A stretch of DNA of 64,000 nt from the NCBI GenBank assembly GCA_951406725.2, contig OX597815.1, positions 203,422,001-203,486,000 on the forward strand, given 5' to 3'. Numbering within the stretch: position 1 is the stretch's first letter; each line of letters begins with the position of its first letter. The DNA is from Octopus vulgaris. Its lineage: Eukaryota. Both the position numbers and the translations under genes were made by a program. Below the pieces are notes generated by a model. The model saw only the letters and a list, made by a program, of their open reading frames with translations. It was not told where the DNA came from and made no database searches. Below are positions 2,186 to 58,544 of the stretch, piece by piece.

Positions 2186-2220
2186 TGACATGCAAATTCG
2201 TGAAGCGTTCCATATTTTTT
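2186..2220 (+). pseudogene. U6 snRNA 3'-end fragment fused to a retroelement-like 3' tail (2221-2280)
   Basis: TGACATGCAAATTCGTGAAGCGTTCCATATTTTTT versus U6 TGACACGCAAATTCGTGAAGCGTTCCATATTTT (one CpG-type mismatch). Confidence 0.88.
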
Positions 2221-2656
2221 ACAGCGGTGGTGCCCCAGCATGGCCGCGGCTTTCGGGCTAAAACATTTTTAAGGATTTAAGTGAATGAGATCATATATGA
2301 AATACCAAAACTCCAATGTTTCCCCACCAATAGTGTAACCCTCTGGAACATTCTCATTGCCCATCTTTATTCCACCCATCATTAATGCATAAAATAAAAG
2401 TTTCAAAATGAACATTAATCTCAGCTTGTTACCTTCAAGACTAAAAATGCTAAAACAAAGACTATGGCTGTTGTCCTTAATCCTAATAAGTTTTGAATTA
2501 GGAGTGTTGCCCACAGACACACTAAAAAAATTACATCCACACAAAACACACACCTACAATCACACACCTACGCACACACAATCACACATCAACACACATA
2601 TTCAGACAATATATGAAGTAACAAAACAAAATACAAAAACCACTTCAGTTAATTAC

Positions 2657-2813
2657 CTGACACAGCTAAGAAGTCATCAATAGTGGTAATATCATCTACA
2701 GCTTCAGTAAGGAGTTGTACTTGCTTCACCCATGCTTCTTTAAATGTTGCCATGTTTTCTTGGGCTACTTTGGAATGTGAACGAGCGGCCAAGATTCTGG
2801 CAGCATTGATTAC
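2657..2813 (-). CDS. CTNNA: alpha-catenin coding exon 11 (157 nt): VINAARILAARSHSKVAQENMATFKEAWVKQVQLLTEAVDDITTIDDFLAVS
   Basis: TAG acceptor and G|GTAAT donor; open frame, phases 0 and 1. Confidence 0.96.
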
Positions 2814-4076
2814 CTATAACATCAACAGGAGCATAACATTAACAAAACCGTTAACTAATCTAAAACATTTCAGGAAACGATTAATCACACAATATTTAAT
2901 GAGTATCAATCATCCATAACATTTAGTATAAGCAATAATGAGGACAAGCCAATGAAGGGTCCTCTACCTGACCATTAAACTCATCAGCTTTTCAAATCAC
3001 ACCTTACTTTCTAGGGAAAGGCAGGTACAATGAATAATGTGACTCTAGGAATATTGTACTTGGGGAAAAGAGTGATGTGATCATGGCTAGAATACTTTTG
3101 TTCAGAGGTCTGTTTGAGCAGTTACTAAGCAGGTGGAGGAAGGTATCAAAGTTCTCGAGGCTCAATGTTAATCTATGAATGCACTGGTTTGTCAAATAAA
3201 TACTAAGGTCCAAGAGCATTACTTTGCCTAGGCATTTATAGCACTGTGAAGGCAGCCCCACCTACACAACAAAACCCCTATGCTGTTGCTTGACTGACTA
3301 TCAATAGCACTAAATTTCTTCACAACCTGCTACCTTAAAAAATAAATGTTAGATAATGAAATCCTACATGTAAAAAAAAATAAAAGGGGGATGGTCATGA
3401 TTAGAATACCTTTAATAACAAGTATGCTCAATCAAGGCTGACCTGGTAAATAACAAAATAATGGTTTCAAATTTTGGCACAAGGCCAGCAGTTTTGGGGA
3501 AGAGCAAAGTTAATTAAATCCCAGTGCTCAACTGGTACTTATTTTATTGACTCTGAAAGGATGAAAAGCAAAGCCAACCCAGTGGAATTTGAACTCAAAG
3601 TAAAAATGGGTGAAATACCACTACACTTTCTACTAAGTGTGCTAACAATTCTGCCAGCTTGCCACCTTAAATATAAAAAAATAATAAAAAAATGAAAAAT
3701 ACGCTTTGTTACAAAAAAAAAAAAACAAAGCCTTCCTCCACACATACTGTTAATTCATAATTAAGATAAGGTTGATTGTTGTTTAGCACCAGGTCCATCC
3801 ATGATCAAAAAAGCTTATGAAGAAAGATGTTCAAGCTTCATCCACTTTTAAAGTCACGTCTCCAGTCATTCTAATGTGGTTTGTTTTTGGAGCGTTGAAA
3901 TGTATTGTAGAACAAGTAGAAAAAATTTTTTTTTTCAACATGTAAAATACTGAACAGAATATATAAAGGATAAAATCTTTTCAAAAGCATAAAAATTTTG
4001 CCAGCAATCATAGCTGGTTGCCAGCAAATTTTTCTGCTCTTAAAAGGATTTTATCCTTTATATATATACTGTTCAA

Positions 4077-4273
4077 TGTTAGTTAGTTAATTTTTTGGCT
4101 AGAAAAGCAAGGCCATGTAGGGGGACATGGAGTTATGTACAGGGTGGTGTTCATGTAAAGAGTTCAGGCCACTTGTGGTCAAGGGAGACTTTGAACCGAG
4201 CGGTCGTCGGCATCTTCACTATCTCGTCCGGCAGCTTATTCCATGGATCCGCAACCCGGACGGAGAAAGCCCC
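4077..4273 (-). mobile_element. CR1/L2-type LINE 3' end with (TAAC)n tail
   Basis: Translates GAFSVRVADPWNKLPDEIVKMPTTARFKVSLDHKWPELFT* (FSxRVxxxWNxLP motif); CpG-rich, so probably young. Confidence 0.8.
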
Positions 4274-4514
4274 ATGCTGAGAAAAAATATATCTTTCAAC
4301 TTGTTTTACTCCTTTTAATATAACAGCTACTGCTTGGAGATGTAAGTAAATCTTTGGACAGCATGCCCCAAGAATAAAGAAACCATGACCTTAGCTTCAA
4401 TACTCATTGAAGATTTCTTCATTTAGTTACCTCCATGTCATAGGTATACTCAACCACAACTGATCAGAGCTACTCAACAAGAGTAAAAAAGGCTGATTAA
4501 TTAATAATACTTAC

Positions 4515-4607
4515 TTGGGGGCAGAGACTTTCTATTTCAGCTGCAGCAATACGAACCATCTTGACACCTTCTTCATTGCTGGACATTGAACAGGCAAGAT
4601 GAGCTAC
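4515..4607 (-). CDS. CTNNA: alpha-catenin coding exon 10 (93 nt): VAHLACSMSSNEEGVKMVRIAAAEIESLCPQ
   Basis: TTTAG acceptor and GTAAGT donor; in frame. Confidence 0.96.
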
Positions 4608-5185
4608 CTAAAGACAAGACATGGTAAATTGAATGAGTATGATACACATGATGATGGAAAATTAGTCACCTGGATTGGAAAGACAGAGACCAAGATATAT
4701 TGAGAAAGTGGAAGATTGTAACAGAGATAGATGTAACAATGAAGGAGGTGGTAGGAAACAAGTCACTGACCACTTGCAATAGATGTAACAAATGAATGAA
4801 AAGAACTGATAAAGTAAGTGAATAGATAAGTAACCATGATTGAATATGATGGATAATGAATGAAAGAATGAAAGACTGAGCTAACATAACATGATAATGA
4901 GTGAATTAATGAATAATGTAACAAAAGACTGAGCAAACAAATGTGATTGATATAAAGGGAAATTAATGAATTGATGATTCTAACTAATGAAGAAAATGAA
5001 TGAGAAATAAACATGACTGAGAAAGAAAGAATGATTGAGAGAAAGAGTAAATATGATCAAGGTAAGAAGTAAAGAATGAAAATGACTGCTGCTTCATGAA
5101 ACAAATGAATGTAGATGATATGGTAAAATGACTGAATGATGGTTTGAAGTATAAGAAATGTGAAAATAAAATGAATGAAGATTAA

Positions 5186-5630
5186 CCCTTTTGTTACTGT
5201 ATTTATTTTGATATACTCTATGTTCCTTTCAATTACTTTAACCCTTTCGTGTTTAAACCGGCCATATCCAGCCAAAATATTCTACCTATTTTATGCTCAA
5301 ACTAGTCAGATATGGTCATTCATAGCTATCTTATTGTGTCATTTTTAAAAATAAACAATCACATCATTGAAATCTCAAAGCCATGAAATGATGCAAGATT
5401 AATTTTACATGGTGTGAATACATAAGCTTTACATTTGACAGAATAATCTGAATGCTAAAGGGTTAAATATAACAAAGAATTTGGTAAAATAACTTAGTTA
5501 TCATTCAGCTAATTTTAGGAACATAAATTGTGGCCAAGGTTTGGAAGAAGATTTTAATTCAAAACTTATGAAAACAAGACATTTGTACTCAGAGCCAGAG
5601 CCGGTTTCAGCTGGGTTGGTAATGAAAGGG
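5186..5630. mobile_element. piggyBac-like MITE (TTAA target duplication) containing a nested TTAA MITE at 5242-5462
   Basis: TTAA-CCCTTTTGTTAC...GTAATGAAAGGG-TTAA; inner element TTAA-CCCTTT...TAAAGGG-TTAA. Confidence 0.8.
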
Positions 5631-6214
5631 TTAATGAGTTAATGAGTGTGTGTGTATCAGAAGTGAGTGAATAAATCTCTAACTAATGCACACAAGGAAT
5701 AAATATAGATTCAACAGTAGTGGGAAAAATTATTATAGAGAATGAATTAGAAAACTTGCTTAAATGTATAAAAATGCATAAAACAAAATAATAAAAAAAA
5801 CAGGGAGAGGGATGAAAAATTTACAATACTTTATTGAAATATTAATCCTTATAAAAAAAAAAAACTGGGCTGATGGATCATACCACCATTTTTATGTTAG
5901 GAAGATAATTAGGTGTTGTTTGAGGTAGGGAGAGAGAGAGAAAAAGAGATTCTCAAAAGAATTTCATATAACAATGTTATTGTGTTGTTTCTCATAAATA
6001 TGGTCAAGCAGTTGGCTTTCATCAGCAAAAGGTTAAAAATATATATCCCTACAGTAATTTAGTGAAGGAAAGAAAATTTAATTGGTAATGTGTGCTATCA
6101 CTGCTATCAGAAATGCTCTGAACAAAGCATTTAATCCATCATCTAATTAATAATAGCTGCAACAAATGTTGGTTGATTGAGCTCTCCAGTTATACTTTAC
6201 ATTGTCTAGAAAGG

Positions 6215-6255
<41 letters not shown>

Positions 6256-6332
6256 AAAGACAGTTTCTATAAAGATGCCTGAGTCTGCATGCTTGGTTAG
6301 GTGGCAGGCAATGAGTAAGGAATGCTACACAC

Positions 6333-6700
6333 GTGGTAGCAACCACATGGTTCTGGGTTCAGTCCCATTGCGTGGCATCTTGGACAAGTGTCTTCTGCTA
6401 TAGCCCCGGGCCGACCAATGCCTTGTGAGTGGATTTGGTAGACGGAAACTGAAAGAAGCCTGTCGTATATATGTATATATATATGTGTGTATGTGTTTGT
6501 GTGTCTGTCCCTCTAGCATTGCTTGACAACCGATGCTGGTGTGTTTAAGTCCCCGTAACTTAGCAGTTCAGCATAAGAGACCGATAGAATAAGTACTGGG
6601 CTTACAAAGAATAAGTCCCAGGGTCAAGTTGCTTGACTAAAGGCGGTGCTCCAGCATGGCCACAGTCAAATGACTGAAACAAGTAAAAGAGTAAAGAGTA
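6333..6700 (+). mobile_element. SINE family A (head slightly truncated)
   Basis: Reverse-complement match to 442-858. Confidence 0.88.
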
Positions 6701-9557
6701 TGCTGACGCACATACACACACAGTGAGAGAGAGACTCAAAAGTAGAGGTGTAAATGACAGTAGTAATAAGAGGAGATCAAATATTGTAGAGACAGGTTTC
6801 TGATAAGAGTAGATTATGTTTATGTTGATAATATTTAGAAAAATAACATTTAATGCAAATATACAAATGAGAAGTTTGTTTTATTTATTATATTTTAAAG
6901 ATATAATTTTTCTAAAATTACAATTCATTATACAATTTTGATAAAAGTTAAACTATATATATATTGGATGTATGTCTCATTTCTTGATATTACCCATGGT
7001 TGAAAAATATATTTTCAAAGTTCCCCATGATAAGACAGGTAATAAATAAAGGTCAACTCATCTTAACACATATCTTTCTTTTCCTAAGATGAGCCATGGT
7101 TTGCAAGCGCTGAAAGCTGGTTATACAGTAGGGAGTTGTACAAACCCATGGTATACCTATTTACAGTGAACTGGCCTGAGCCATCTGAAAATTATTAATA
7201 TCTTAACCGAGAACAAATTCAAAGCCTATTCCTACTACACTGATCTCAAAGGATTTCTAAACACAAAGTACAGCTTATCTAAATTGTCACAGAAGCCTCA
7301 CAGAATTCAAACTGAACCCCTCACTCAGTACCCTTAACACCATAATAGTTTGATTTGCTGAGGTTTTTTGTAAAATAGAAAACTAAAAAAATATTTTAAA
7401 ATACACAGCACTAAAGGTCTGTGTGTGCGCACAGGCACGCACATCAAAATCTTGCAAATTCAGCTGTATCTCCAATATTAAATTATACTCAAGCCAACAA
7501 GTTAAAGGAGTCTATGTGATTGTTCAACCAGCTAGAAATAGAAGCCAAGTCTCCCTAGTTACCCCTAAAAATACAAGATGATTACAGCTAAAATATCTTC
7601 AATCAAAGGTTTGTTCACTGTGAAAGAGAAGACTGAAGAAGCAGAAAATGAGTAAAGGGTGAGGGTGTCTAAACTAATTGCAGCTTTTAAGTGACTACCG
7701 AAGAGAAAATTATGCAACAAGAATCAAGCCTCATTCATATACACTTTAGCAGACAGGAAATATTTAGCATATATCAATTATACAATCTCAACTGCCCCAC
7801 TTTAACCCAAGAGTTCCTTGTATCTATTAACATGGTGATTATGGCCAAGCAACTCTATGAAAACATCCGTTAGAATAATAGTGGAGGAACACTTAGAAAT
7901 AATTACTATAATAACAGTAATAAAATTTTGTTTGCTTCAGTATCGAAAAGTGTTTTTTATTTTAATGTCAATTTAAATATCAAATACAAGTGGAAACTAG
8001 ATTTTCTTAAATTTTTGAGAATGCAGTACCACAAATGTTTTATCACCTCAACTCCAAAATAAGTGAGTTGTATTGTTGCCAACTTCATTTAATCCTAGGT
8101 AAATCCAGAATAAGGAGACTTACGGTCAAAGGCAGTAGCTATGACCAATGTGTCTCTTTTCCAAACAGAAAGACATATTGTAGTCTTGGTTACATGCATT
8201 ATCTAATACCATTCATTGAAAACAATCACTATCATCATTTTAATGTCTGTTTTTCCATGCTCACATGACTCAGATGGATATTGCTGACGTAGATTTTCTA
8301 CAGCCAGATACCCTTCTAGTTGCCAGCTTTCACCTGTCTCCAAGTAAAATAACACTTCCTCATGACCAGACATTTTTACAGAAGATTGCAAATAAGACAC
8401 TTGTTTACAACTGTAATGTGATGAGAAGGCAAGGAAATAGTAACACACACACAAATGACTCCTGAAGACATTCCCACTATCCACCATCTCTCTAACTGCA
8501 GAATTCTGTTGCCATAATTAAATGATATAACTGCAGAACAGACCAGTTTTCCTCCAATAACACACACCATTCTTACTACTTGGAACTGGTTCACTTGTTA
8601 TCCATCTTTCATTCTTAACACTGTTTCCTCCAAATCTTTTACATCGATCACCCACAACCATATATCATCTTTCTCTTCTCTCTCTCTTGCCCTACCCCTA
8701 TCTAGTGTACCATCATTACTTTTTCTGTAGCGCTTCACTCACCACCTTTTTTTTTTTTTGCACTGTCAGTTATTTTCTATTCTCTCCTACCATATATGCA
8801 TTATTGGTCACCCACCTTGACCCTTATCCACCATTCATTACATCCACCTCTCAACCCTACCCAATTTCTAGTCATCACCTACTTTTCCCTACCTCCCCTA
8901 CTCATCACCCTTAAACACCTGTTCATAATATTCATCCCCTCACCTTACAATCTCTATTCACCAGCACTCTTTTCTATCCTCACACTTTGAGGTTCCACCT
9001 CAAAACCTCATCACCACTATTTTATCTCTTTCCAACTCCACTTTCTTTTCTATAATGCAAGTAGCCATGTAACTCTTCTACAACAAGAAACCTGTTCCAT
9101 TCTGGAGCCTTCTCTCTTACTTCCACCTCTCATTTTCTTGTATGAAGCAACTGCATTCTTTCCATTCAGCCAAAGATGATTTTAGTCTTGCAAGCTTCAC
9201 AGTGACCTCAATGATGCTAATGCAATGACACAGAAAAAAAAAGTCACACCCAGTAAGAACTGTAAAGTGGGTGGTGCTAAGAAAACCTTGTCAAAACAAT
9301 CTTTTTGAACAATTAAAAAATTCCTTTGAATATGAAGTGTTGTCAGCTGAGAAAGCAATCTTGCAATTAGCTCACTCAAATTTGCCAAATAAAATGATGG
9401 GCAAGAAGGGCATCAAGCTGTAGAAAACATTGGAGCTTGGAACAATTCTGTGGCTGGTTGGATCCTGTTAAACCATCAATCCATGCCAGCATAGACATTA
9501 AATGATATTGATGATAATAGCAATAAGGATGGGAACTATGATAATAATGATACATAC

Positions 9558-9710
9558 CTCTACAAGCTTATTAGCATGTTCAGTAAATATGACTGCAAAC
9601 TCTTCTACCGCATTCTCATTACCAGCTTTGGCTGCTTCAATGAGCACAAGAAGAGGAACGTTGGTTTCCAGAAAGGAATCAGATACATGATCCACAACAG
9701 CTTTCCTTAG
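9558..9710 (-). CDS. CTNNA: alpha-catenin coding exon 9 (153 nt): LRKAVVDHVSDSFLETNVPLLVLIEAAKAGNENAVEEFAVIFTEHANKLVE
   Basis: Poly-T/ACAG acceptor and GAG|GTATGT donor; overlaps ORF 9498..9695. Confidence 0.97.
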
Positions 9711-10152
9711 CTGTAAAAAAAAAAAAAAAAATTAAAATTAAATAAAAAAGCAATTGAACAAAAATCAATTAAGAAAACCTCATTACAAGACCTATTTCAA
9801 ACTTCATTATAAGACACATTTCAAAGTTACCAAAGGTATTGCAGTAGTAATATTTTATTTATTCATTACATGTATGACAGAGTATAAATATCTAAAGGGG
9901 AAAATTGGGTATATAGTACCGTGCAAATGTATTCATAAAACTATTGTAAATTTCCACTAATTGCCAACTTATAAGTGGATGTTTCACATTGATTTTTTTT
10001 ACAGATGAAACATTGACCCTGTTGGAGTCATTTCCATACCTAATCATTATCTTTTGTAATAGGGGTTCAGAATGAGAGGGAAAGATGCGAGATGACCACC
10101 AAAAATGGCCACGCAAAAGTTTTTAGCTACCTCATATAAACCAATCAAGATA

Positions 10153-11164
10153 CAGTGTTTTAAAACAGAAAAATGTTAATATTGAAAATTGATTACATAA
10201 TGTTCATTTCAAGAAGTTACTGTACATTGTTAATATTTCATGTGGCTTCCCTTAGCTTGAATAATTGCTTCAATGCTCCTAGGAAGAGATGCATACAAAT
10301 CCTTCACCATTTTTACAGGTTTGAGATGCCATTCTCAGTGGTTGAGCTCCAACAACTCTTCAAGATTGCGTGGATTCTTCTGACAAACTCTTCTCTTTAG
10401 TTCTGTTCACATTTGCTCAATGATATTTAAGTCAGGGCTCTGAGCTGGCCAATCTTTCAATATGGTAACACCATCAACCAGACTCTTGCGTTGCATGTGA
10501 TCTGTGGCATGGAACTCCGTCATGCTGAAAAATTTCAACTTCATCCAGGTCTGATATCAAATTGTCCTTCAGCAACTGGATGTACTTGGCACTATTCAAG
10601 TTACTGTCAATTTTAAGCAACTTTCTTGAACCATCACTTCATGTATCCCCAAAGCATCAGACCCTTACCCTCAAACTTCACTGTTTTCATTGTATAACAT
10701 GGGTCATTTAGCTTTCTAATAAGTGAGAATTTGTCAGAAGGCCACCAGGAGAGCAAAATGACCCATGTTACACAATGAAAAACAGTGAAGTTTGGGGGTA
10801 AGAGTAAGGAGCTTTGAGGATACATAAAAAGTGATGGTTCAAGAAAGTCGGTTAAAATTGATGGTAACTTGAATAGTGGCAAATACATCGAGTTACTGAA
10901 TGACAATTTGATAGCAGACCTAAATGAAGTAGAGATTTTTCAGTATGACGGAGCTCCATGCCACAGATGGTGTGCAACACAACAGAGCCTAGCAGATGAA
11001 GGTGATACCGCATTGAAAGATTGACCAACTCATGTGGACAGAACTAAAGAGAAGAGTTCGACAGAAGAATCCATGCAATCCTGAGTTGTGGGAGCTCAGT
11101 CACAGAGAATGGCAACTCATACCTGTGAAGATGGTGAAGGATTTGTACACATCTATTCTCAGAA
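10153..11164. mobile_element. Tc1/mariner transposase remnant arranged as an inverted duplication
   Basis: Degenerate translation ..TVKFGGKS..GYIKSDG..KIDGNLNSGKYIELL..IFQYDGAPCH..W.ELKRRV on + (10756-11164), mirrored on - (10278-10709); TA-CAGTG end at 10151. Confidence 0.8.
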
Positions 11165-11757
11165 AGACATGTAACAAGGTGGTGAGAAATGATCCAATGT
11201 TGAGCCTGACAGAGGAGTTGACAAGGGACTGAGGCTTTTAGCGATTTGTTTGAGAAGACCATGGCAAACTAAGTAAAATCGTGGCCATCCATACGTATAG
11301 GCATGTTATTTACAGCCAAGCTTCCCCTCACGCAATCTGACCTCTTTCAAAACTTCTACACAATCCACCTTATCCAACTACCCATCCCACCATCCATGAT
11401 CACAGGTTTGTTCAGTCAGAGTCGGCCAGGAGCTAAACAACAACAAAAAAGCTAATTGACCATATTTGTCATAAGTAAGACTAAAGAGTGATCTTGATAT
11501 GGTCAGTTGACAGCAGAGTTGGTAACAGCTATTCAACATAAGCCTATGACAGCTAAATCTATGAGCATTGGACAAATTCATTAGTGGTTTAGCTGTATAT
11601 AAAATAAAATCACTAGCACTTATATGTCTATAGTTTATCCAGAATTAGTAATGTCTATCCACTACCTTTTCCAACAACCACTATTGTATTTGTCAGATGA
11701 GATATATTTATCAAAACTGTCACACCTTAACCTGAAAGCTTGAGCCAAAAATATTAA

Positions 11758-12345
11758 CTCTTTCTTAGTCACACAGGTGTGTGTCGTCACCCTAAATTTT
11801 TTTAAACATTCGTAATTTCCAGTTAGCAGCTTTTTTATTTTTTTTGCTCTTTCCTCTACTCTTCTGACTCAGTGAGGGCCTATTGCAGGTGGTCTGGCGC
11901 AGTCATGACTCAGTTGTCGTGGGAGGTAGACATTTTTGTCTAGTCACCCCATGTGACTAACACAGCTGAAAGTTTGATTGAAAGCATATTGTAATGAAGA
12001 TTGTCCATTAAGTTACTTTTTTTATATTAATATTCATCATAGATATCAAAAAATTCCACAAAATGGTGTATTCTGTGGGTATTTTCACAATAAATACGAT
12101 CTGAATCTTAAAATTTTTTTTAGTTTTTCCTTAATTTTATAGATTTATTTTATAGTATTGTTTTATATTAATATCAATCAGCTACAAGGGTTTCAAACTT
12201 CTCAGCAGTGATTGCAGATATATCCTGAACCAACAGAATGAGTATATTTCACATAATACTAAAACTATAAACATTTTTGTATTGGGGTGTGTCAACACCT
12301 AATGTGACTAATCATGTTCAGAAAGATCAGGCAACTAACAAAGGG
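11758..12345. mobile_element. piggyBac-like non-autonomous element
   Basis: TTAA on both sides; terminal inverted repeats CTCTTTCTTAGT / ACTAACAAAGGG (10/12 match). Confidence 0.6.
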
Positions 12346-13126
12346 TTAATTTCCAACTGAAGCCAAAGCTGCAAATCAGTTTCAATTTCATCTACTCTAG
12401 TAGTGTATTACTGGTACTTATTTAAATTATACTGGAAGGATAGACATCAAAGTCGATTGAATGTAGATTTTTGGGATGAAATATGATTTTATCCCTTTCT
12501 AAATCTTCCCCTGCAACAGGTACCTTAGATTGTGTGTGTGTGTGTAATAGACAGAACATTTATTAGATTCCACAAAACAAATTATCTGAAAAAAATGTTT
12601 GTATTCATAGCTCCTGAGAATAGCATACAGCACCATTTGCTTTAGTTTACTTCCTGACAGACAAAAACCAAGTTATTGTTTTATATATATTTGTGTGTAT
12701 GTGTGTCTGTGTGGAGAGAGAGAGAGAGCAAGAGATACATATCCATATATATAAAGAGAGGAGGAGGTTACTACTAAATCCATTGTCTTCCTTGCTGGAG
12801 GCCAATTCAGTCTAGCAGAGCTTATTATTCAACAGATTATTGGCTGTTATAAAGAATAAGTTAGGTGAAATGATCATCAAGCTGACCTTGCAAGAGCTAG
12901 ACTCGTATTCCATTCACTAGTACACTTTTTTTCTACATTGTAATTTATTTTCTTCCCTAGAGAAATTTTTTATTTGACAGTCATGTAATTTATTTTTATT
13001 AATATTATTTTAATTTTTAGCAATGAAGATTAATGATTTCTACTAAAGAATGATTAGAAAATGCACATTCAGGCATACACACCCCTCTCTCTCTCTCTGT
13101 ATATATATATATATATATATATACTT

Positions 13127-13195
<69 letters not shown>

Positions 13196-13496
13196 CATCA
13201 TTCATTTCATCATAAAATTAAGTTTTAAGTTTTGGTTAATGAAAGTTTGTAAATTGGTTGTTATATTTATTAGTAATATATTTACATTTCAAAATGGCCA
13301 CCCCTATTTTATGTTTAAATAATTGTTAATTATGCTTAAATAATGGGTAAATATGATGCTGTACCCAGTACATATGTATGCATTCACTATGTGTACCCCA
13401 GTTTTAAAATAGGTAGAGGACTGGTGTAAAAATTGACTCAAATGGTTGGCATCAGAAAGGGTATCAAGCCTCAAAAAGCTTGTGTATGTGCGTATA

Positions 13497-20285: not shown

Positions 20286-20309
20286 AAATATTATAAATAT
20301 AAAACATTA

Positions 20310-20410: not shown

Positions 20411-20466
20411 TTGGTACAGTAATTATTGGCATGACTATGATACTCTACACAACTGCCACCCATATT

Positions 20467-38395: not shown

Positions 38396-38795
38396 ATATA
38401 TATACATACATACATATATATACATACATACATACATACATACATACACACATACATACATATACATACATACATATACATACATGCATACATATATATA
38501 CATACATGCATACATATATATACATACATACATATATATACATACATACATACATATATATACATACATGCATACATATATATACATACATACATACATA
38601 TATATACATACATACATACATATATATACATACATGGATACATACATACATATATATACATACATGGATACATACATACATATATATACATACATACATA
38701 CATACATGTATATACATACATACATACATATACATACATACATACATACACATACATACATACATATACATACATACATACATACACACATACAT

Positions 38796-38841
<46 letters not shown>

Positions 38842-39013
38842 ATATATATATACATACATACATATATATATATACATACATATACATACATACACATACA
38901 TACATACATACATACATACATACATACATACATACATACATACATACACACACACACATACATATATAATATATACATACATACATACATATATATACAT
39001 ACATACATACATA

Positions 39014-39075
<62 letters not shown>

Positions 39076-39308
39076 TATACACACATACATATATATATAC
39101 ATACATACATATATATACACACATACATATATATATACATACATACATATATATATACATACATATATATATACATACATATACATACATACATATACAT
39201 ACATACACATACATATATACACACATACATACATACATACATACACACACACACATACATACACACACACATACATATACATACATACACACACACACAT
39301 ACATATAT
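38396..39308. repeat. complex (TACA)n/(TA)n/(CA)n microsatellite of about 910 bp
   Basis: Visible directly; it produces the spurious long YIH/VCM ORFs. Confidence 0.97.
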
Positions 39309-42000: not shown

Positions 42001-42322
42001 TAATAATAATAATAATGAAATTATTGTATACGGTGCTCAGGTGCACCACAACTTGTCAAAAGTGCATATAAAGTATATGCAGTAATGTAAAAATGTCTGG
42101 AAAGCGAACAATGTATGAGTCAGATACATGCTTGTGTGTGTATGGAGGGGAGAAAATCAGGTGTAGTGTTGGCGAATCTCAGGAAGCATGGAAGTTTTAA
42201 AGGATGCAATGCTCCGACAACTAACAACTGATGCCAGCAGTTTGTTTCATGCTTCAGCAACTCTCAGCGTGAAAAAAATGCTTCCTGAAGTCATGGGAGC
42301 TGTGCTGTTTTCTGACTTTGTA
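42001..42322 (-). mobile_element. CR1-type LINE 3' end with (TTA)n tail; copies at 47992-48295(-) and 60908-61160(+)
   Basis: Copies translate approximately HDFRKHFFTLRVAEAWNKLPASVVSCRSTASFKTSML; shared 3'UTR. Confidence 0.82.
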
Positions 42323-46821: not shown

Positions 46822-46913
46822 TAAAAGAAAATTGTTTTCTTTTTATTAAAAGAATAAATGTTTTTAGTAATTTAGCTATTAAAACAAGTTATTGAAAAAT
46901 GCATATCCAAATA

Positions 46914-47805: not shown

Positions 47806-47972
47806 ATTATGTAAAGTCTTCAGAAGATGATTCACATCAGACATATCTGCCAAGATTAGAAGACGAGTCACTGCTGAGAGAAGTCCTCTAGCTGCTAGAA
47901 CCATAGCACTTCGTTTGGCGGAAGAACAAGGATCATTAGCAAATTCTTGAGAGGCTCTTCCCATTTCATCAC
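47806..47972 (-). CDS. CTNNA: alpha-catenin coding exon 3 (167 nt): (G)DEMGRASQEFANDPCSSAKRSAMVLAARGLLSAVTRLLILADMSDVNHLLKTLHN
   Basis: TTCTAG acceptor and GTAAGT donor; LLSAVTRLLILADM motif. Confidence 0.97.
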
Positions 47973-48851
47973 CTAGAATGGAAATCATAAAAATAATAAT
48001 AATAATGAAATTATTGTATATAGTGCTCAGGTGCACCACAACTTGTCAAAAGTGCATATAAAGTATATGCAGTAATGTACAAATGTCTGGAAAGTGAACA
48101 GTGTATGAGTCAGATACATGCTTGCATGTGTATGGAGGGGACAAAATCAGGTGTAGTGTTGGCGAATCTCGGGAAGCCTGGAAGTTTTGAAGGATGCAGT
48201 GCTCCGACAACTAGCAACTGATGCTGGCAGTTTGTTCCATGCTTCAGCAACTCTTAGCATGAAAAAATGTTTCCGAAAGTCATGGGAGCTGTGCTATGAT
48301 ATCTAATGAAGATAACTCATAAAATATCAATGCAAGGAAAAGTAATCTAGATCCAATAAACTAGAAATGGTTCAATTACCATTTTGCTATGGACAATGTA
48401 ATGCATAGAGATTCTAAAGTTTATTAAAACACAGAAGAATAAAAAATTAACATATGACATATCTACTATCAAACCAAATCAAATGTTTAGATTAATGGGC
48501 TTTTCTTTCTCCTCTCTCTATGAACAAACTTATAATCAGAAGCAGTTCAGCCATGACCATCCCATCATTTTTAGAACACTGTATATCTTATATATATATA
48601 TATATATATATATATTACACAACATTTTTAAGACAGGCTGCTATTTCTAACAAGTCTAGAAACCCATGTAAGGCTACAAACTCTGGTTGGTACACTTTCT
48701 ACAGATATATGAAAAGTATTTGGTCAAACAAAGAATTCATTTTGATTTTCAAGCTTTTAACTACACCATTGTTTATTGAGGGCAAAGAAAAGAAAACATT
48801 CAGCACTGAATTGTGTCAAGAGGAATTAGGCCACTACTTTTAGAATACCTA

Positions 48852-49059
48852 TTTCTTTACTACTCACAAGGGGCTAAACACAGAGAAGACAAACAAGGAC
48901 AGACAAACGGATTAAGTCGACTGGTACTTATTTAATCGACCCCGAAAGGATGAAAGGCAAAGTTGACCTCGGCGGAATTTGAACTCAGAACGTAGCGGCA
49001 GACGAAATACCACTGAGCATTTCGCCCGGCGCGCTAACGTTTCTGCCAGCTCGCCGCCT
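48852..49059 (-). mobile_element. SINE family C (small internal deletion)
   Basis: Head GGCGGCGAGCTGGCAGAAACGTTAGC, B-box-like GAGTTCAAATTC. Confidence 0.85.
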
Positions 49060-51313
49060 TACCTAATAGTTACATGGAAGACCACCATAGCATTTGAGTA
49101 AATGTTTGGCTTTCATCTTTCAGAAATATGTTTTACCGATACAAAATAATGCATTGTTGTATATAACATTTATATGGATATACAGCAGTTACCAAAAGGC
49201 CATATGCAAATGGACTAAATTATTTCTGGATCTATAAACAATGTACAAGTGATATAATTGAAGATTTAATACATCAAGAGCAAAATGAATGATAGATTTC
49301 ATAGAATTTATTAAACTTCAATTGAATAACACTTCAACATTATTTTATTAGACATGAAATAGTAATTTAATAATAGCTTATTAAACTAGTAGATAATTTG
49401 ATACTTTTGTCACTATCTTGTTAAGCCTTTGTCTGTTCAAAGAATTCATAAATTTGTCCTAAAGTTCAAGCTTGTTTTCAAACCTTTAGTTAGCCCTTAT
49501 TTCATGTTATCATCATCGTGGTTTAACGTCCCCTTTCCATGCTGCATTAGGCTCCAATCCAATTTGGCAATGTTTCTACAGCTGGATGCCCTTCCTAACA
49601 CCAGCCACTCCAAGAGTGTAGTGGGTGCTTTTACATACCACTGGCATAAGGGCCAATCAGGCGGTACTGGCATCAGCCACACTTGAATGGTACTTTTTAC
49701 ATGCCACTGGCACAGGAACAAGTCAGGCGGCACTGGCAATGACCACGCTCGTATGGTGCCTTTTACATCCCACTGGCATGGGAACCAGTCAAGTGGCACT
49801 AGCAATGATCATGTTTGAATGGTGCTTTTTACATGCTGCCGGCATAGGACCAATCAGGTAGCACTGGCATCAACCACACTCGAATAGTGCTTTTTACGTG
49901 CCATTGGCACAGGTACCATTCAGGTGATACAGTCATTGGCCGCCACAACTTGCCCCGACAGGTCTTTGAAAGCTCAGTTTATTGCCCAACGATTGAAGAG
50001 TACTCTTAAATGGGCTCTTATGCTGCACTGGCATAGGCCACGGTTACAGTCTCACTCCTGAATAATATAAAACTTTTCTAAATCCTATGCTACTCTGGTC
50101 ATTGAAAAAATTGGGAAAGTATATCATAGGACTCATGGAATACAGGAAAATATGTTCGTGCAATACACAGGATAGACAAACGATTAAGTCTGCTGAGGGC
50201 TACGCTTTACTGATGAGGTCTAAGACTGATGAGTTTTTGACTGAAATATATATTCAGAAGTGTCTTCCGTACTTACCAGAAAAAGTGAAAATAATAGTTA
50301 TTGACTAGTAGTCATTATCATCATCATTTAATATTCGTTGTCCATGCTGGCATGGGTTGGATGGTTTGAACAGGGCTGGCAAGCTGGAAGGCCGCACCAG
50401 ACTTAAATCTGATCTGGCATGGTTCCTATGACTGGAGGCCCTTCCTAACACCAACCACTGTGTGTAATGGGTGCTTTTACATGCCACTAGCACAGGTGCC
50501 ATTTGCATGACACCAGTATCTGCCACGACTGTGATTTTATTTGGCTTGGGTCTTCTCAAGCACAACATAATTCCAAAGGTCTTGGTCATTCGTCTTTGCC
50601 TCCATGAGGGCCACCATTCGAAACATTATTTCAGGGTTGCTTTTTTCAATTTTTTTTTTGATTCAAGTAGCAAATGTAACAAGTGAGTATTGGCAAAAGG
50701 AAGGGTATCAAACTATAGAAAATCTACCTCAACAAATTCCATCTGAACTGTGCAAGCATGGTAAAGTTGACATAAAAACAATGATGATGATTATGCTAAG
50801 TTCGAGTCTGACTGACATTAATCTGATAATATACTCCTCATAGCTTAGGCAGGCTTGGCTAGAAACACCTAATAAATAACATGATGGCTAAGAAGATGCT
50901 GATCAAGTAGTGGATATATATATGTTAATGATTCAGCTGTTGCACACCCACTATTACAGGCAGTTCATAATGAGGACAAGGATTCAAACTTAAAAAGACA
51001 CTGAGTACTAAAATGCCTTCTCCGACTCCCAGGGGATGCTGAACACAGAACTGCAAGGCAATGAACAACTTCTGAATATTACACACCTAACATGGATTAG
51101 GGTAACAAACTGTACTTCTACACCACCAATTTCCAGTTTGGTGGACTGGGCAATCTGAGAGTCACTTTTCTTGCCCATGGATTTGCAATGCTGCTGACAG
51201 AATAATTTACTAATGGCTTCAGAGTAAATTCTTTCAGAAGAAAAAGAGAAAAGGAAGAGAAAAAGTAATTGTATAAACCAAATGGAAGGAGGTTTTTAAA
51301 GCAGTATACATAC

Positions 51314-51503
51314 CAGTTTTGCGGACATCCTCTACAGCAAGCAACATGTCTTCTCGAATCTCAGGATTTTCTTCTGCGATCTCTTCACCACGTTCAATAA
51401 AGTTTTCCGTAGCTTTCTGCACAGCAGCACTGAGAACGTGGGCTTTTTTGGAATGTCCTTTCTTCTTTTTGACTGGACCTTTCTGACTGACCAGTGTTGT
51501 GAC
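51314..51503 (-). CDS. CTNNA: alpha-catenin coding exon 2 (190 nt): VTTLVSQKGPVKKKKGHSKKAHVLSAAVQKATENFIERGEEIAEENPEIREDMLLAVEDVRKT(G)
   Basis: TAG acceptor and G|GTATGT donor; N-terminal beta-catenin-binding region. Confidence 0.96.
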
Positions 51504-52103
51504 CTACGCCAAAATTAAATATATTTTAAGTTTGAAATTATCAGCTCATCAGTCAGAAATCATCCAAAGAATGTATTTTAAAAGTTTAAACAAAATGTGT
51601 ATATTTCAAGGATCAAATTTATGTTTAATTTAAAATGTAATTAAAATTTCTTACCAAACAGCAGTGTGACAAAGATTAAAACAAAAAAAGCAGGAGTTCT
51701 CTTAAGTGTTGATATCTGTTGGTCTTTGAGGGCATCAAGACAAGTCATAAAACTATTGGCCAGTTGGTTGAAAGTTTAACAAATCAATAATGTATAGTGT
51801 TCAAAATAAAGACACTTAACTTTTTATGACCCATTCATGTTAGTTTTAAAGTATTTTGGGAAGTACAATTTCTTGCAATACCGTATGAATTGGTAGGATT
51901 TAAAAAAAAAAATTTCAAATGATATACTGCACTAGAGCAAAGATAGTTGTCCACTTTACAAACCAACTGTAGTACACCAAACTTTAAATAGTATTTTGGG
52001 GGGAAAAACAAAAACAGTACAAACTATTCCACTTAAGAATTACTTACCATCGCTTCAAAACAATGAGAAAAAGAGGTAAATTAATAAATCATTTTTGTAT
52101 TCT

Positions 52104-52457
52104 CTTACTTGTTTCAGTCATTTGAATCAAATTTAAGAATTTCAAATCAAATGAACTGATTCCTGTATTTACTTTTTTTAAGCCTGGTACTTATTCTATC
52201 GGTGTCTTTTGCCAAACTGCTAAGTTAAAGGGACATAAACATGCCAACACCAGATATCTAGTATTCATGGTGGTGGGGACAAAGACACACGTTTACAATG
52301 AGCTTCTTTCAGTTTCTGTCAACCAAATCCTCTCACAAGGCTTTGACTGCCCCAAAGCTATAGTAGAAGACATTTGTCCATGGTTCCACATAGTGGGACT
52401 GAAACCAGAACCATGTGATTGAGAAGCTAACTTCTTATCACACTGCTACACCTGCAC
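52104..52457 (-). mobile_element. diverged SINE family A copy
   Basis: Collinear similarity to the other copies. Confidence 0.75.
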
Positions 52458-54002
52458 TTATTTTGAGAACATAATCCACTAATACTAAATGGGTTGTTTA
52501 GCGGGTGTTTTACATTTAAACCTTCTCTGCTTTATTCTTCCATCATACTGCCAACAGTGAAAGTACGTAAATTTTCTTTCTTCTATCACACATATAAAAC
52601 ATTTGTATCCTTACTACTAGCTCCGTGAGAAACAAACAACATAAAATATGTAGATATTTCTAATAATTCTAGCTTCAATGGAAATTTCTTTTCAAGAAAA
52701 TTCCAGTAATTAGTTCACCAGTTGTATGTAAAATACATCAAAAATTTTATCTCTTCACTTGATATACCACCCTTCTTTGGCATTTACAATCAATCTTTCA
52801 TTAGAGTGATTCTCCACTCCTCTGCTTTTTATATAGTTAATACAATGGTATACTCCTTCGAACTATAGTTCCCTTACACGAGGTATATTCAATGCACATT
52901 ATCCCACCATCCCTATAATATTTTACTGTCTGACACCCACAATACCTTTTATTAAACATTTCACTTAATACTTGCTTCCTAGAACTCTAACCATGCCTAT
53001 TTATCATAAAGCATCTGCAAGAATTCTAAGTGGATTGGAGTTCCAGATCATTACCCACAGGAGGAACGAAATGGCCCACTGTAGTACAAGTATGTGAGTT
53101 GATAAAACAATCATGGAAAAATATAAGAATTGCAATGACTGTCAAGCTTTTTTAAGAAGTGTAGAATTAACAATACCCCTGACAGCACTAAAGATGATAC
53201 TTTACAGGGTGTTCAGGTTAAATTTGACAGTTTTTTTTTATGTCTCCTTTTCCAGGAACAGCTAGAGGCAATCGGATGGAGGATGCCCAAGATCCTAGAA
53301 GACACACACACAGACAGAACAGATTTTATATAATAGATGAAGAATTCTCTGGTTTTGAAGATAGCTAGAGATTTTGTTAAAGAAATTAATGTTTGTATCC
53401 TGATTTCATACAGTAATTTTGTTTATGTTCAACTGGTAACTTGCTTTTCATATACAATAATGTTTGTTATAGCTAAGGTGTTTTTGCTTTCTCTTGCAAT
53501 ATAAGCTGCTCATGCAGGCTATTTTAACTACTGTGATTGCCTACGTTATATTCAACAGCAGTGATAACTTTTTTTTTATGTATGCTACTTTGTTCTGTTA
53601 AAGCAAAGCTACTACTATTTTCTTTCATTAACTCTTTAGCATCGAGATGATTCAGTAAAATGTAACGTATACTTATTCACATCATTTTGAATTAATCATG
53701 CATTATCTTGTGGCTTTGAGATTTTCATAAAGTGATTGCTTATTTTTAGAAAGACATTGTAGGGTAGGTGTGAGAGGGCAGAGTTGGTGGTTTGAACAAA
53801 AAGAATATTTAAGCCAGATATGGCTGATTTGAATGCTAAAGGGTTAAATTACAGTATTATTAAAATGACCCCACTATTCTAATTTTACTGTTGTTCAATC
53901 CTTTCTATAATACATATCTCAAACATTAAATACTTGATTTATTTTGTTTATATATATGATTTTTTTCCCTCTGTCTTCCCTTCTCTGGATCTTTCCTTCT
54001 AT

Positions 54003-54037
54003 GTTTCCGACGAAGAGCTCCGCTTGAAACGTTAAAC
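54003..54037 (+). ncRNA. type I minimal hammerhead ribozyme-like motif within a ~190-bp insert bounded by (TA)n
   Basis: GTTT-CCGACGA-A-GAGC tcc GCTT-GAAA-CG-TT-AAAC: stem I GTTT/AAAC, palindromic ACGT stem III, GUH site. Confidence 0.65.
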
Positions 54038-54493
54038 CCTCCTTCTTTCCTGAGCGTCCAATAATACTATATTTGTTCCACGCCCTCGCATTGTTGTGAT
54101 TTTATGTGCTTTCTTGTTCGGATTAACTATATATATATATATATTCCCTCCTAAACTGGGAGTACATTTTACATGTCCATGTGCCTTATATGTCATCAAA
54201 TATAGTGATAAATAAAGGGATTCCACCAGCAGCTCAAAAATGAATGAATAAATGAATATAAATGAAATCATTCCCAGCCAAAGAATACAGAAATAGTAAT
54301 GAAATATGAGAACGGTTTATAAAAATTGGATAAACAAGCGTTGCAGGTTGATGAGCAGATAATTAACAGAACTAAAATAAACATGGAACAGATTGAGACA
54401 AATGAAACTTAACCGAATGACTTGCTGGGTGAGCAAGAGATTGCAACCACAGAGGAAATATTAAAAATAAAGAGAAAAAAAAGTTGATCATAG

Positions 54494-54879
54494 AGAAGCA
54501 GGAGTGGCTGTGTGGTAAGTAGCTTGCTTACCAACCACATGGTTCCTGGTTCAGTCCCACTGCGTGGCATCTTGGGCAAGTGTCTTCTGCTATAGCCCCG
54601 GGCCGACCAATGCCTTGTGAGTGGATTTGGTAGACGGAAACTGAAAGAAGCCTGTCGTATATATATATATATGTGTGTGTGTTTGTGTGTCTGTCCCCCT
54701 AGCATTGCTTGACAACCGATGCTGGTGTGTTTACGTCCCCGTCACTTAGCAGTTCGGCAAAAGAGACCAATAGAATAAGTACTGGGCTTACAAAGAATAA
54801 GTCCCGGGGTCGATTTGCTCGACTAAAGGCGGTGCTCCAGCATGGCCGCAGTCAAATGACTGAAACAAGTAAAGAAAGA
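54494..54879 (+). mobile_element. SINE family A, full length
   Basis: Matches the other family A copies. Confidence 0.9.
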
Positions 54880-54962
54880 AAAAACAAAAAGCAAATTTTT
54901 TTTACTTAGCAACATAGGAGAAAATATAAAGAAAAAAAATGAATATTATTGCTTTATTTCAC

Positions 54963-55076
54963 CTGCGTAACTAAAGGTTCTAATGTTTTTTCCACTGACT
55001 TTGTTCGAATATCTAAATTCCTGGGATTCCATTTCAGGTGAATTGAACCAGGAATACCAGTTGGACTGGTTGTCAT
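54963..55076 (-). CDS. CTNNA: alpha-catenin first coding exon (114 nt CDS plus 21 nt 5'UTR to 55097): MTTSPTGIPGSIHLKWNPRNLDIRTKSVEKTLEPLVTQ
   Basis: ACCATG start context, upstream pyrimidine-rich TTTTCAG acceptor at 55098-55104, and CAG|GTGAA donor. Confidence 0.94.
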
Positions 55077-56494
55077 GGTGATTGGGGGTAAGTGGAACTG
55101 AAAAGAGAAAAGAAAATACGATGATATTAGACATCTGTTGGAGCAAGACAGGTTATACTCACACACTACACAAATCTGAATAAATATAAAAAATGTATTT
55201 ACATATGAGATGTATACTAAGAGAAAGTGGTGATATTTTCAATGCTTTGATGGTGTAGGGTAATGAAATGTCAGTAGAAATGTTTTTGCCACCCGGAGGC
55301 CTAGTAAGGCATTTAGTACTTTGTCTAAGAAAGTGATGTGGATGCAGATATGGCTGTGTGATGAAGTATTTCACTGTACAGCAATACGGCTTCAAGTTCA
55401 ATCTCACTAAGCAGCACTTGTTCAAGTGCCTCTAACCATAGTATCATAAGAGAAAGTGGTGATATTTTCAATGTTTTGATGGTGTAGGGCAATGTCAGTA
55501 GAAATGTTTTTGCTATACAGTCTGTTATGAGTTAGAGCAGATTCAAAAGACTTCATACCTACATGGTTTCTCATCATCATCATCGTTTAACCCTTTAGTG
55601 TTCAGATTATTCTGTCAAATGTGATGTTTGTTTATTTAAAATGGTTTGAATTAATCCTGTATTTTCTTGTAGTTTAGAGATTGCAGTGATCTGATTTTTT
55701 TAGTTTTAGAATGACATGGAAGGGCTGAGGTGAGAGGCGAGCTCTAGTCAGTTTCAATATAAAACAGGTTAAATATTTTGGCCGGATATGGCCAGTTTGA
55801 ATGCTAAAGGGTTAACGTCCGTTTTCCATGCTAGCATGGGTTGGACAGTTCAACTGGGGTCTGGGAAGCCAGTAGGCTGCGCCAGGCCCAATCTGATCTG
55901 GCAGTGTTTCTACAGCTGGATGCCCTTCCTAACGCCAACCACTCTGTGAGTGTAGTGGGTGCTTTTTACATGCCACCTGCACAGGTGCCAGACGAGGCTG
56001 GCAAATGGCCACAATCGGATGGTGCTTTTTACGTGCCACCGGCACAGGGGCCAGACGAGGCTGGCAACCTCTTAAAAATAAAATCTTCCTGAAATTGCAC
56101 AAGTTTTTGCTTTTATATCTTTAATTGTTTAATTTGAATGGGAAGGGAAGTGAAGCAGTATCCATACTCTTTTCAGTGCTTCTGAAACTGGAAGAGATTG
56201 GGGGAAGGACTGTATCCTCAAACCACATCAGAAGGATATGGAAAGAAAAAGCTAAATGCTTATGTATAAGCTACCACCCAGAGGCCTAATAAGACATTTC
56301 GTACTTTGTCTAGCAAAGTGATGTGGGTGCAGATATGGCTGTGTGGTGAAGAATTTTACATTGCAGCTTGGGGCTCAAGTGCCTCTGACCATAGTACCAA
56401 ATCAACTAAATCCTAAACATATTATTGAGCCTGTGGCCAAGCTTTAATGAGCAGAAGCTGCCAAAGGCATTCCAGCTGTGACCACCCTACATTA

Positions 56495-57674
56495 TCTCTT
56501 ATTATAAAAGGCAGATTTTATCTGCCTCCCTTTGGGAGTTATACAAATCTACAATATAGGATTTCTTCAATTACAATTTACCTAGCATTTTTAAGAGTAC
56601 AATGCATCGCGTCATGCCAGGTCCAGTTTTTAAAATTTAAACTCCAATTAAGCAAAATTTACAGAAAACTCACATTCTGGTGTGTGTGTCAAATGCTTTT
56701 CTTAGTCTGGTTTACACCACACGCAAACGCACACACACAGTGTGCGACGAATAAAATGAAAGTAAATGTAATATTTGTTTCTGTCTATCACGCTGATAGA
56801 TACATGAGTAAAATGTATGGGAAGCTAACAGATAACAGTGAGTGAAAATGTTCTTGGAAGAGAGTAAATTAGCGACAGAGTGATTTGAGCAAGACTAAAC
56901 TGAAAGTATGAAACAGTGTTTATGTATAAACAGACGACACTTATATAAACCCTTTCGTTACCAAACCGCCCGAATTTACCTATTCATATTTAAATGAGAA
57001 TATCAGAGTAAATCTCTTTAGTACATTCGTGAAAACACGTATTATACTTCGTAAACACTTCAAATACACTTTTGTACAAAAATCGAAGTGTAATTTTAAT
57101 TCCGTGAATTATGGGAGATTTTTTTTCCGAAATTTGTTCCTATTGTGTTTTCAAAATTTGTAATTCTGACAAAAAATGGATACGAATTTCATTATATCAA
57201 GCAGCGAGTCAGAATTCGAAGGATTTTCTACTGAAGACCTTCATAAATCTAACTCTATGACTGAAAAAAAAAAAAGCATCTTTATATAAGAGTGAAGTTG
57301 TGTGTCTGTCCCCTTCGATTTAGATTCGTAACTACTCCCACATTTTGCCGTGCAGTTTAACCAAAAGCGGGTATCTTATAGTCGTGATTCATATCGAGCC
57401 CTTCTGGGTATTAGCGCGCGTCTACGATGAGTCTACGATTTAAAAAAAATTTACCATCATATTTTTCCATTTTAATGCATTTTTTTCGCTTTTATATAAG
57501 GGAAGTAACTCTCTAAAAATATCTACGATGTGTCAACGATTTAAAAAAAAAATTTACCTTAATTTTTTTTCAATTTTTAATGCATTTTTTTGCTATTTTT
57601 TGGCTATAACTCTCTAAAAATGCTTATATAGTTATTTCCCTTACAACCCGAGCAACGCCGGGCGATACTGCTAG
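56495..57674 (+). mobile_element. composite non-autonomous Helitron (second TC start at 57279)
   Basis: A|TCTCTTATTATAAAAG start, internal A|TCTTTATATAAG start, and a single hairpin+CTAG|T end. Confidence 0.72.
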
Positions 57675-58046
57675 TAGAGAATATATAAAAAACCATTATC
57701 TCATGTATCATTCTGTTTTTATAGTTTTCCTAAATTCAATAGGATGCAATTTGAGAGGGATTTGGGAAGTATTTCTAGCAAGTCATGCAACTGCATAGAG
57801 AGTCCTATGATGGCTTGTTCAAGTAATAGTAGCAGCTTAGAGGCTTCCTCAGAAGTTTTTCAACTAGCTAGAAGTATCAACTACATCCCTAAATCTCTTT
57901 CAAAAACAAATACCTCCCACCACAGAAAGCAAAAAAAAAAATGCACATTGGACAAGTTTAGCCACACCTTGAAATAAGTCTAGTTCAGTGGTTCTCAACC
58001 AGGGTCCATATGGCTCGGGGGAGGGGTGGGGGGTCCATAACAGATT

Positions 58047-58246
58047 ACTCTTGTTTCAGTCATTTGACTGTGGCCATGCTGGAGCACCACCTTTAGTTGA
58101 GCAAATCAACCCCAGGACTTTTTCTTTGGAAGCCTAGTAATTATTCTATTGGTCTCTTTTGCCGAACCGCTAAGTTACAGGGACGTAAACACACCATCAT
58201 CGGTTGTCAAGCGATGTTGAGGGGACAGACACAAACATACACACAC

Positions 58247-58281
<35 letters not shown>

Positions 58282-58441
58282 ACGAGCTTCTTTCAGTTTC
58301 CGTCTACCAAATCCACTCACAAGGCTTTGGTTGGCCTGAGGCTATAGAAGACACTTGCCCAAGGTTCCACGCAGTGGGACTGAACCCGGAACCATGTGGT
58401 TGGGAAGCAAGCTACTTGCCACACAGCCACTCCTATGCCTA
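58047..58441 (-). mobile_element. SINE family A immediately downstream of the U6 copy
   Basis: Full-length copy whose head abuts the U6 oligo-T. Confidence 0.9.
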
Positions 58442-58442
58442 G

Positions 58443-58544
58443 AAAAAATATGGAATGCTTCATGAATTTCTGTGTCATCCTTATGCAGGGGCCATGCTAA
58501 TCTTCTCTGTATCGTTCTAATTTTAGAATATGTAACGCCATAGC
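58443..58544 (-). pseudogene. near full-length U6 snRNA retrocopy
   Basis: Reverse complement ACATATTCTAAAATTAGAACGATACAGAGAAGATTAGCATGGCCCCTGCATAAGGATGACACAGAAATTCATGAAGCATTCCATATTTTTT. ACAGAGA box and AGC triad intact; about 8 substitutions against the canonical U6 as I recall it; extreme 5' end missing; no promoter context. Confidence 0.93.

Follow-up and report, generated by a model that had tools for sequence, protein, structure and literature searches.

Two U6 chimeras in the window

A stretch of 64,000 nucleotides (nt) of Octopus vulgaris DNA (contig OX597815.1, positions 203,422,001 to 203,486,000, forward strand) was analyzed; this whole stretch is called the window, and its positions are counted from its first letter. 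It contains two copies of U6 small nuclear RNA (snRNA), each continuing at its 3' end into a retroelement, at one locus a piece of a long interspersed nuclear element (LINE) and at the other a short interspersed nuclear element (SINE). A sequence-only reading had described both copies as ending in CCATA plus six T and as directly followed by retroelement sequence in the same sense, and this was confirmed at both loci. The features are as follows.

Locus 1
2186..2220 (+): U6 copy, 5'-truncated (position 73 to end, 35 nt), terminating in CCATA plus six T
2221..2221 (+): single extra A at the joint, without counterpart in the parent LINE
2222..2281 (+): tail-only piece of type T2, 60 nt, from a young LINE with APE endonuclease and reverse transcriptase (RT) in its second open reading frame (ORF2)
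Locus 2
58443..58545 (-): U6 copy of gene type A, near full-length (from position 6), terminating in CCATA plus six T, without upstream promoter
58440..58442 (-): joint CTA, an extra C followed by TA, the usual first bases of SINE A copies
58047..58439 (-): SINE A, full-length, with tRNA-type head, box A and box B read from the sequence, and tail type T1
57986..58750 (no strand assigned): host miniature inverted-repeat transposable element (MITE) that has terminal inverted repeats and an 8-bp target duplication and is interrupted at a single point by U6 plus SINE A

The T2 tail of locus 1 consists of two hairpins, AAAAC and TTTAAGGA repeats, and starts at the recurrent breakpoint of its family. 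The tail motif shared by both loci lies at 2226-2245 (+) in locus 1 and, in its T1 form, at 58091-58072 (-) in the SINE A of locus 2. Rfam places the U6 match of locus 2 at 58550-58444 (-) with 100.9 bits. Seven further SINE A copies are present elsewhere in the window, with matches longer than 300 nt and 84-89% identity.

The host MITE of locus 2 was compared with 19 other copies, 12 of which are uninterrupted and 225-260 bp long. The two halves in the window meet across the insert with a few bases lost. Since the MITE is split at a single point, U6 and SINE A arrived at locus 2 as one insertion. The locus is old, because a duplicate on C22 (90.6% identity) includes the chimera. The presence of two chimeras in 64 kb, which the sequence-only reading had singled out, is not special: at the observed density, 1.3 windows of 64 kb with at least two U6 copies are expected by chance.

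U6 copies across the genome

The assembly (2.8 Gb, 227 contigs) was searched with a 17-nt pattern of the U6 3' end, which gave 368 exact matches and none for the reversed control. The first 100 matches (C1 to C4:48.6 Mb) were classified automatically with correction by hand, and the class counts below refer to these. Eight are U6 genes with upstream octamer/TATA-like sequence, present as one array of seven and one single gene. Among the 92 non-gene copies, 82 continue in sense into a retroelement or a small-RNA copy. The largest group, 45 matches, lies at SINE 5' ends (39 SINE A, 5 SINE B and 1 SINE C), and 24 more adjoin the hairpin tail at its 5' edge. The remaining joints are with RTE-type or other repeats (8, one of them RT coding sequence, PF00078), the inside of SINE A (2), other U6 copies (2) and an (ATT)n-family tail (1). 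Eight matches are arms of five fold-back palindromes, and two fit no class.

The chance that the start of a SINE head or tail falls within 30 nt in the same orientation is 0.0045 at the density of the window, whereas 69 of the 92 non-gene copies are joined at a site of one of these two kinds. This tabulation, which had been proposed as a check, bears out the suggestion that a non-L1 LINE/SINE system captures U6 frequently and independently. The notion of one system was too narrow, as RTE-type elements, SINE B, SINE C, the (ATT)n family and another LINE also capture U6.

Several observations accompany the survey. Three U6 gene types (A, B and C) differ in the 5' stem-loop, and the type A genes form a tandem array of seven (L013-L019, C1:139.42 Mb). 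The head-to-head fold-back palindromes have an snRNA at their centre (U6 at L031, L071, L072, L077 and L089, U1 at L225), with one arm full and the other partial; the outer arms at the five U6 loci are AT-rich repeats present elsewhere. They perhaps resemble snap-back of complementary DNA (cDNA) following snRNA capture, with Penelope-type elements as candidate agents. At L197 and L221 (U6) and L410/L435 (7SL), the join site lies at nearly the same place within SINE A, about 130 nt before its 3' end, and is possibly a second, internal SINE A breakpoint. At L048 a SINE B carries in its head an inserted U6-SINE B chimera, flanked by a 12-bp target-site duplication (TSD). One U6-T1 tail chimera is present in six copies at roughly 20-kb spacing (L336-L341), a tandem duplication; together with L242, it inflates the counts slightly.

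The hairpin tail and its fixed breakpoint

The hairpin tail, about 55 nt long, is common to SINE A and to CR1-type LINEs. SINE A bears type T1, type T2 is the end of a young LINE, and related LINEs bear T3 and T4 (9,723 matches). The T2 tail has 1,750 exact matches genome-wide, and long copies of its LINE are mostly 94-99.7% identical. Two of them keep an open frame of 1039 amino acids with PF14529/PF03372 (APE endonuclease) and PF00078 (RT), whose stop lies 18 nt before the motif. The gene layout of the tail-donor LINE is that of the CR1 clade, with APE and RT in ORF2, a short 3' untranslated region and an end of tandem repeats, not poly(A). From the RT motifs alone, we take the tail-donor LINEs to be CR1-type. 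None of the 72 T1 tails seen belonged to a LINE, which would be the direct partner of SINE A. The tail folds into two hairpins; over nine copies 95% of cells pair, and three pairs change on both sides, a figure that is statistically weak in these related sequences.

A search for the U6 end and a tail within 24 nt of each other gave 68 exact matches genome-wide and none for the control. All 68 were examined, and they comprise 26 T3, 15 T1, 14 T2 and 13 T4 tails. In 57 of them the element starts 3-5 nt before the GG of the motif, approximately 2-4 nt ahead of the first stem, and does so in four different sequence contexts. Tail-only inserts with the same breakpoint also occur without U6, in 8 of 30 T2 and 5 of 28 T3/T4 background copies. 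Tail-edge starts were found at 16 of 16 U6-LINE (T2-T4) joints as compared to 13 of 58 background copies (p 1e-8), and the body of the tail-donor LINEs (T2-T4) followed U6 in none of the first 100 U6 matches.

Our guess is that the fixed breakpoint marks a protected 3' fragment left by 5'-3' decay; alternatively, the RT may be released after copying its own binding site. A self-cleaving ribozyme at the joint sites was considered but is not supported: Rfam gave no match to SINE A plus tail at a threshold as loose as E 5, and the breakpoint is spread over 3-5 nt, although an unlisted ribozyme is possible. No report of a tail-edge hotspot was found in the literature covered, which left out most subscription journals.

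Independent origin of the chimeras

Upstream flanks are shared only among genes and palindrome arms, apart from one repeat-sharing pair among the 68 U6-tail chimeras. The three U6 gene types are mixed with the four tail types. Among chimeras with the same tail and linker, 46 pairs could be formed, and none shares a non-CpG mutation. The signature of an snRNA-headed SINE, namely subfamilies sharing head, joint and diagnostic mutations, was not found in the 68 tail and 39 SINE A joints. In the copies examined, unrelated flanks, mixed types, distinct joints and the lack of shared mutations reject the U6-headed SINE lineage that the sequence-only reading had raised as its other possibility. These U6 chimeras are of independent origin at unrelated loci.

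Both ends were found for 57 chimeras, four of which have non-repetitive TSDs of at least 10 nt (control 26/3,192, 0.8%). All four TSDs enclose U6 plus partner and none encloses the partner alone.

Sequence of the joints

Extra bases absent from both parents are present in 46 of the 68 U6-tail joints, and 22 have none. The first extra base is C in 29 cases, A in 17 and G in none. The T-run is shorter ahead of C (mean 4.6 vs 6.5, p 1.2e-6). The search patterns demanded at least four T; shorter T-runs exist, and 18 of 20 such loci have a U6 body, most with the same partners. SINE A joints behave similarly, with extra bases in 26 of 39, C first in 17 and 31 distinct joints in all. The SINE joint point is where ordinary SINE copies begin, upstream of the tRNA-like first base, and this would be the primary start of RNA polymerase III (Pol III). 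Purines make up 59 of 70 linker bases at 7SL joints as compared to 43 of 119 at U6 joints (p 8e-11), which indicates that part of the linker derives from the captured RNA's own tail.

Two other sources of the C were tried and rejected. As sole source, the U6 gene trailer does not fit: of the 21 type B/C joints that have extra bases, 11 begin them with C, while the B and C genes found have G there, although unfound genes are possible. Later decay of T to C does not fit either: among the first 100 matches listed (C1-C18), a count by hand gave 5-10 loci with C at each of T-run positions 1-4, as compared to 13 at position 5 and 16 at position 6 within C1 and up to part of C4 alone.

The U6 part is near full length in 40 of the 68 U6-tail chimeras and starts at positions 52-76 in 21; none starts at 19-51. 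L027 (1356-1560) holds a tRNA-Lys(CTT) copy, a U6 and then the 5' ~45 nt of a second U6, with the same T4-CT joint. A tandem U6 at L044 may be a DNA duplication, because both copies share a variant base.

Other captured small RNAs

U6 is not the sole captured RNA, since U6atac and 7SL join the same partners. U6atac gave 43 matches, and in the best 30, read by hand, 25 join SINE A or SINE B starts or the tail edge (11 SINE A starts, 4 SINE B starts, 10 tail edge); the rest are one RTE-type tail, one gene and three others. For 7SL there were 33 exact 3'-end matches, 15 of them genes and 18 dispersed. Every dispersed copy is joined, 14 to the tail edge, two to a SINE A start and two inside SINE A. 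Four 7SL-tail fusions (L415, L439, L440 and L442) have only 2-3 T at the joint.

In the case of U1, there were 46 exact matches, mostly in gene arrays, and the 16 regions examined gave 16 readable ends in 14 regions. None of the 16 ends is joined directly to SINE A, SINE B or a hairpin tail. Two lie on an (ATT)n-family tail, five are retrocopies with trailer and (ATT)n (one with a SINE B 45 nt further on), two are palindrome arms and seven are gene-like. The U1 pattern misses more old copies because it contains three CpGs. The retrocopies at L226, L230, L232, L233 and L234 carry roughly 18 nt of 3' trailer from the gene ahead of an (ATT)n end, and are thus copies of unprocessed pre-U1. Gene arrays were also noted for 7SL (13-14 genes, L389-L401, C5:143.1 Mb) and U1 (more than 20 genes, L165-L193, C18:49 Mb).

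Origin of the chimeras

The chimeras probably arise by end-to-end template jumping of the RT, one insertion each. The LINE RT would start at the element's 3' tail, run to the 5' end of its RNA template and then jump to a nuclear small RNA whose 3' end is free and single-stranded, foremost U6, then U6atac, then 7SL. The joint sites would be real RNA 5' ends, the Pol III start in the case of SINEs and, for tail joints, that of a ~55-nt 3' fragment of LINE or SINE RNA, perhaps shielded from 5'-3' decay by bound ORF2 protein. Such ends would not be 5'-hydroxyl (5'-OH) ends. The C that closes the U6 T-run would reflect a G added to the cDNA without a template and paired with the last U, and the A/G-rich 7SL linkers would stem from tailing of the 7SL RNA. 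An RT that runs off, adds bases and jumps to a free 3' end would account both for joints at SINE starts and for the capture of tailed 7SL, U1 and tRNA. In vitro, the R2 enzyme adds non-templated bases and jumps serially (PMC8594491), and R2 insertions in human cells acquire 'almost always U6' (PMC11371274). A cyclic phosphate is named for U6 and U6atac, and human 7SL is adenylated (PMC12811392).

Several points weigh against jumping. Copies of 7SL (18) are far fewer than those of U6 (~340 dispersed exact matches) and of the minor U6atac (43), and U1 takes no part in the system; the two cyclic-phosphate RNAs thus lead the captures, as ligation predicts. Overhangs of more than 2 nt inhibit jumping in the R2 assay, and pyrimidines are added poorly (PMC8594491), whereas 18 of the 68 linkers here exceed 2 nt, and in 17 the first base is A, corresponding to T in the cDNA. 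An own-tail origin of linkers cuts both ways, as the C might be a tail on U6 itself and not an addition by the RT; it could also come from the type A gene trailer. TSDs of 5-7 nt barely exceed the control (49% vs 39%). The PRINT paper leaves jumping and ligation undecided.

The sequence-only reading had offered both template switching and ligation by RtcB, and the latter is the weaker of the two. Here RtcB would ligate U6 or U6atac, with their 2',3'-cyclic phosphate, to 5'-OH SINE or LINE RNA, a nuclease cut before the tail hairpin would yield the tail fragment, and the fused RNA would be retrotransposed. This is unlikely, even though RtcB ligation was demonstrated for U6/L1 in human (PMC6789731), the captures are dominated by U6 and U6atac, 22 of the 68 tail joints lack an extra base and an endonuclease would suit the fixed breakpoint. 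RtcB needs a cyclic phosphate and a 5'-OH, and 5'-triphosphate RNA gave no full-length product (PMC6789731); 45 of the 92 non-gene copies are joined at SINE starts. The precise joint expected of ligation is at odds with the untemplated bases in most tail and SINE A joints, and the breakpoint scatters by 3-5 nt across its four sequence contexts. U1 and 7SL with A/G-rich linkers are captured too, and we know of no cyclic-phosphate end for 7SL. At L027 a U6 end is joined to the start of another U6, and the U6 5' end is capped. It is the joints at SINE starts, at a U6 5' end and from A/G-tailed 7SL that favour jumping over RtcB ligation; a mix of routes is possible.

A host repair polymerase, instead of ORF2, might extend the stalled cDNA end on nuclear RNA while the 5' junction is closed. 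Captures look alike in many unrelated partner families, which would suit a shared host step, and fold-back palindromes centred on U6 or U1 occur. However, capture avoids ordinary truncations, as seen in the 16/16 versus 13/58 tail-edge starts, and acceptor RNAs are entered at their 3' end, so that this explanation is rather improbable.

Sequential insertion, in which SINEs or LINEs land later, or site-specifically, directly after pre-existing U6 copies, would explain why most chimeras lack a clear TSD. It is very improbable nevertheless: there are at least six partner types, all in sense, and three different small RNAs; the long TSDs span both parts in 4/57 and the partner alone in none; the MITE insertion is at one point; and eight promoter-bearing U6 genes and 15 7SL genes lack such an insertion. 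A U6-headed SINE family spread from one or few master copies can practically be dismissed, since recurrent joints (for example, 5/68 with the same linker and tail) carry different U6 gene types, joints are diverse in SINE A, and the T-run of at least four T between head and tail would stop Pol III.

Surroundings of the loci in the window

The window also contains an exon at 2658-2813 (-) that matches the Vinculin family (PF01044, E 3e-19), and its peptide presumably resembles alpha-catenin. Locus 1 is about 400 nt downstream of this exon, probably within an intron and in antisense orientation to the gene. At 42052, 48042 and 61111 the window has three copies of the element that ends in (ATT)n and that, at other loci, captures U1 and U6 with its tail. 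A mixed (TA)/(TG) microsatellite of about 900 nt occupies 38400-39300.

Relation to known chimeras and significance

Capture of U6 by elements other than L1 is already known from vertebrates. Published U6 chimeras involve L2 and Mon-1 in platypus and, besides L1, also L2, RTE and AnolisSINE2 in Anolis; RTE in opossum and CR1 in turkey are single cases (Doucet et al. 2015, PMC4476161). The sequence-only reading knew of no such description in molluscs, and no octopus, mollusc or other invertebrate U6-chimera report was found in the literature covered, from which subscription journals were mostly missing. As in platypus and Anolis, the U6 3' end is joined in sense to the short 3' piece of a stringent LINE or to its SINE; as in platypus (40/47 there), most non-gene U6 copies are chimeric, with short or no TSDs and many 5'-truncated U6 parts (PMC4476161). 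Unlike those cases, the present ones come from an invertebrate genome and number in the hundreds, 7SL is captured, and 40 of 68 U6 parts are near full length. Joints here cluster at SINE 5' ends and one tail-edge site, features that the platypus and lizard cases may share.

Human U6/L1 and U6atac/L1 chimeras are similar in having full-length U6 with a T-run, in sense, and in the use of U6atac (Moldovan et al. 2019, PMC6789731; Law and Burns 2025, PMC11838501). Rare human 7SL/L1 chimeras, and others with tRNA and further RNAs, are also described (PMC11838501). In human the L1 part is variably truncated, joints are precise ligation joints and U6/Alu is rare (PMC6789731; PMC11838501), whereas here most partners are SINEs, the breakpoint is fixed, and extra bases are present in two thirds of the tail joints.

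The likeness to R2 extends to run-off, non-templated addition, a jump to another RNA's 3' end, serial jumps and U6 as the usual extra template in cells (PMC8594491, PMC11371274). However, R2 belongs to another LINE clade, and its jumping was demonstrated biochemically, while here it is deduced from genomic joints. SINEU of crocodilians likewise combines an snRNA-derived head with a retroelement tail (Kojima 2015, PMC4494074), but SINEU forms amplified families with U1/U2 heads (PMC4494074), whereas the chimeras here are one-off events without a lineage. Comparison with PMC4758252 gave no family name for SINE A, and PMC11331408 yielded nothing further on U6.

Ligation versus RT jumping is still debated for U6/LINE chimeras and also for R2-based gene insertion, in which the stray template is usually U6. 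The octopus genome supplies hundreds of joints that separate both models, and several young LINEs, with copies 97-99% identical and ORF2 open, for tests. Tentatively, stringent LINEs may jump end to end to any nuclear RNA whose 3' tail is free, without cyclic-phosphate ligation, and LINE/SINE RNA may routinely be trimmed to a discrete ~55-nt tail RNA that retrotransposes itself. SINEs are proposed to originate when a small RNA is joined to a bare tail; the four 7SL-tail fusions with 2-3 T, which have no Pol III stop, would then be proto-SINEs at the moment of origin. These results extend the phenomenon from vertebrates to a mollusc, with repeated head-to-tail fusions of the type proposed to found SINE families.

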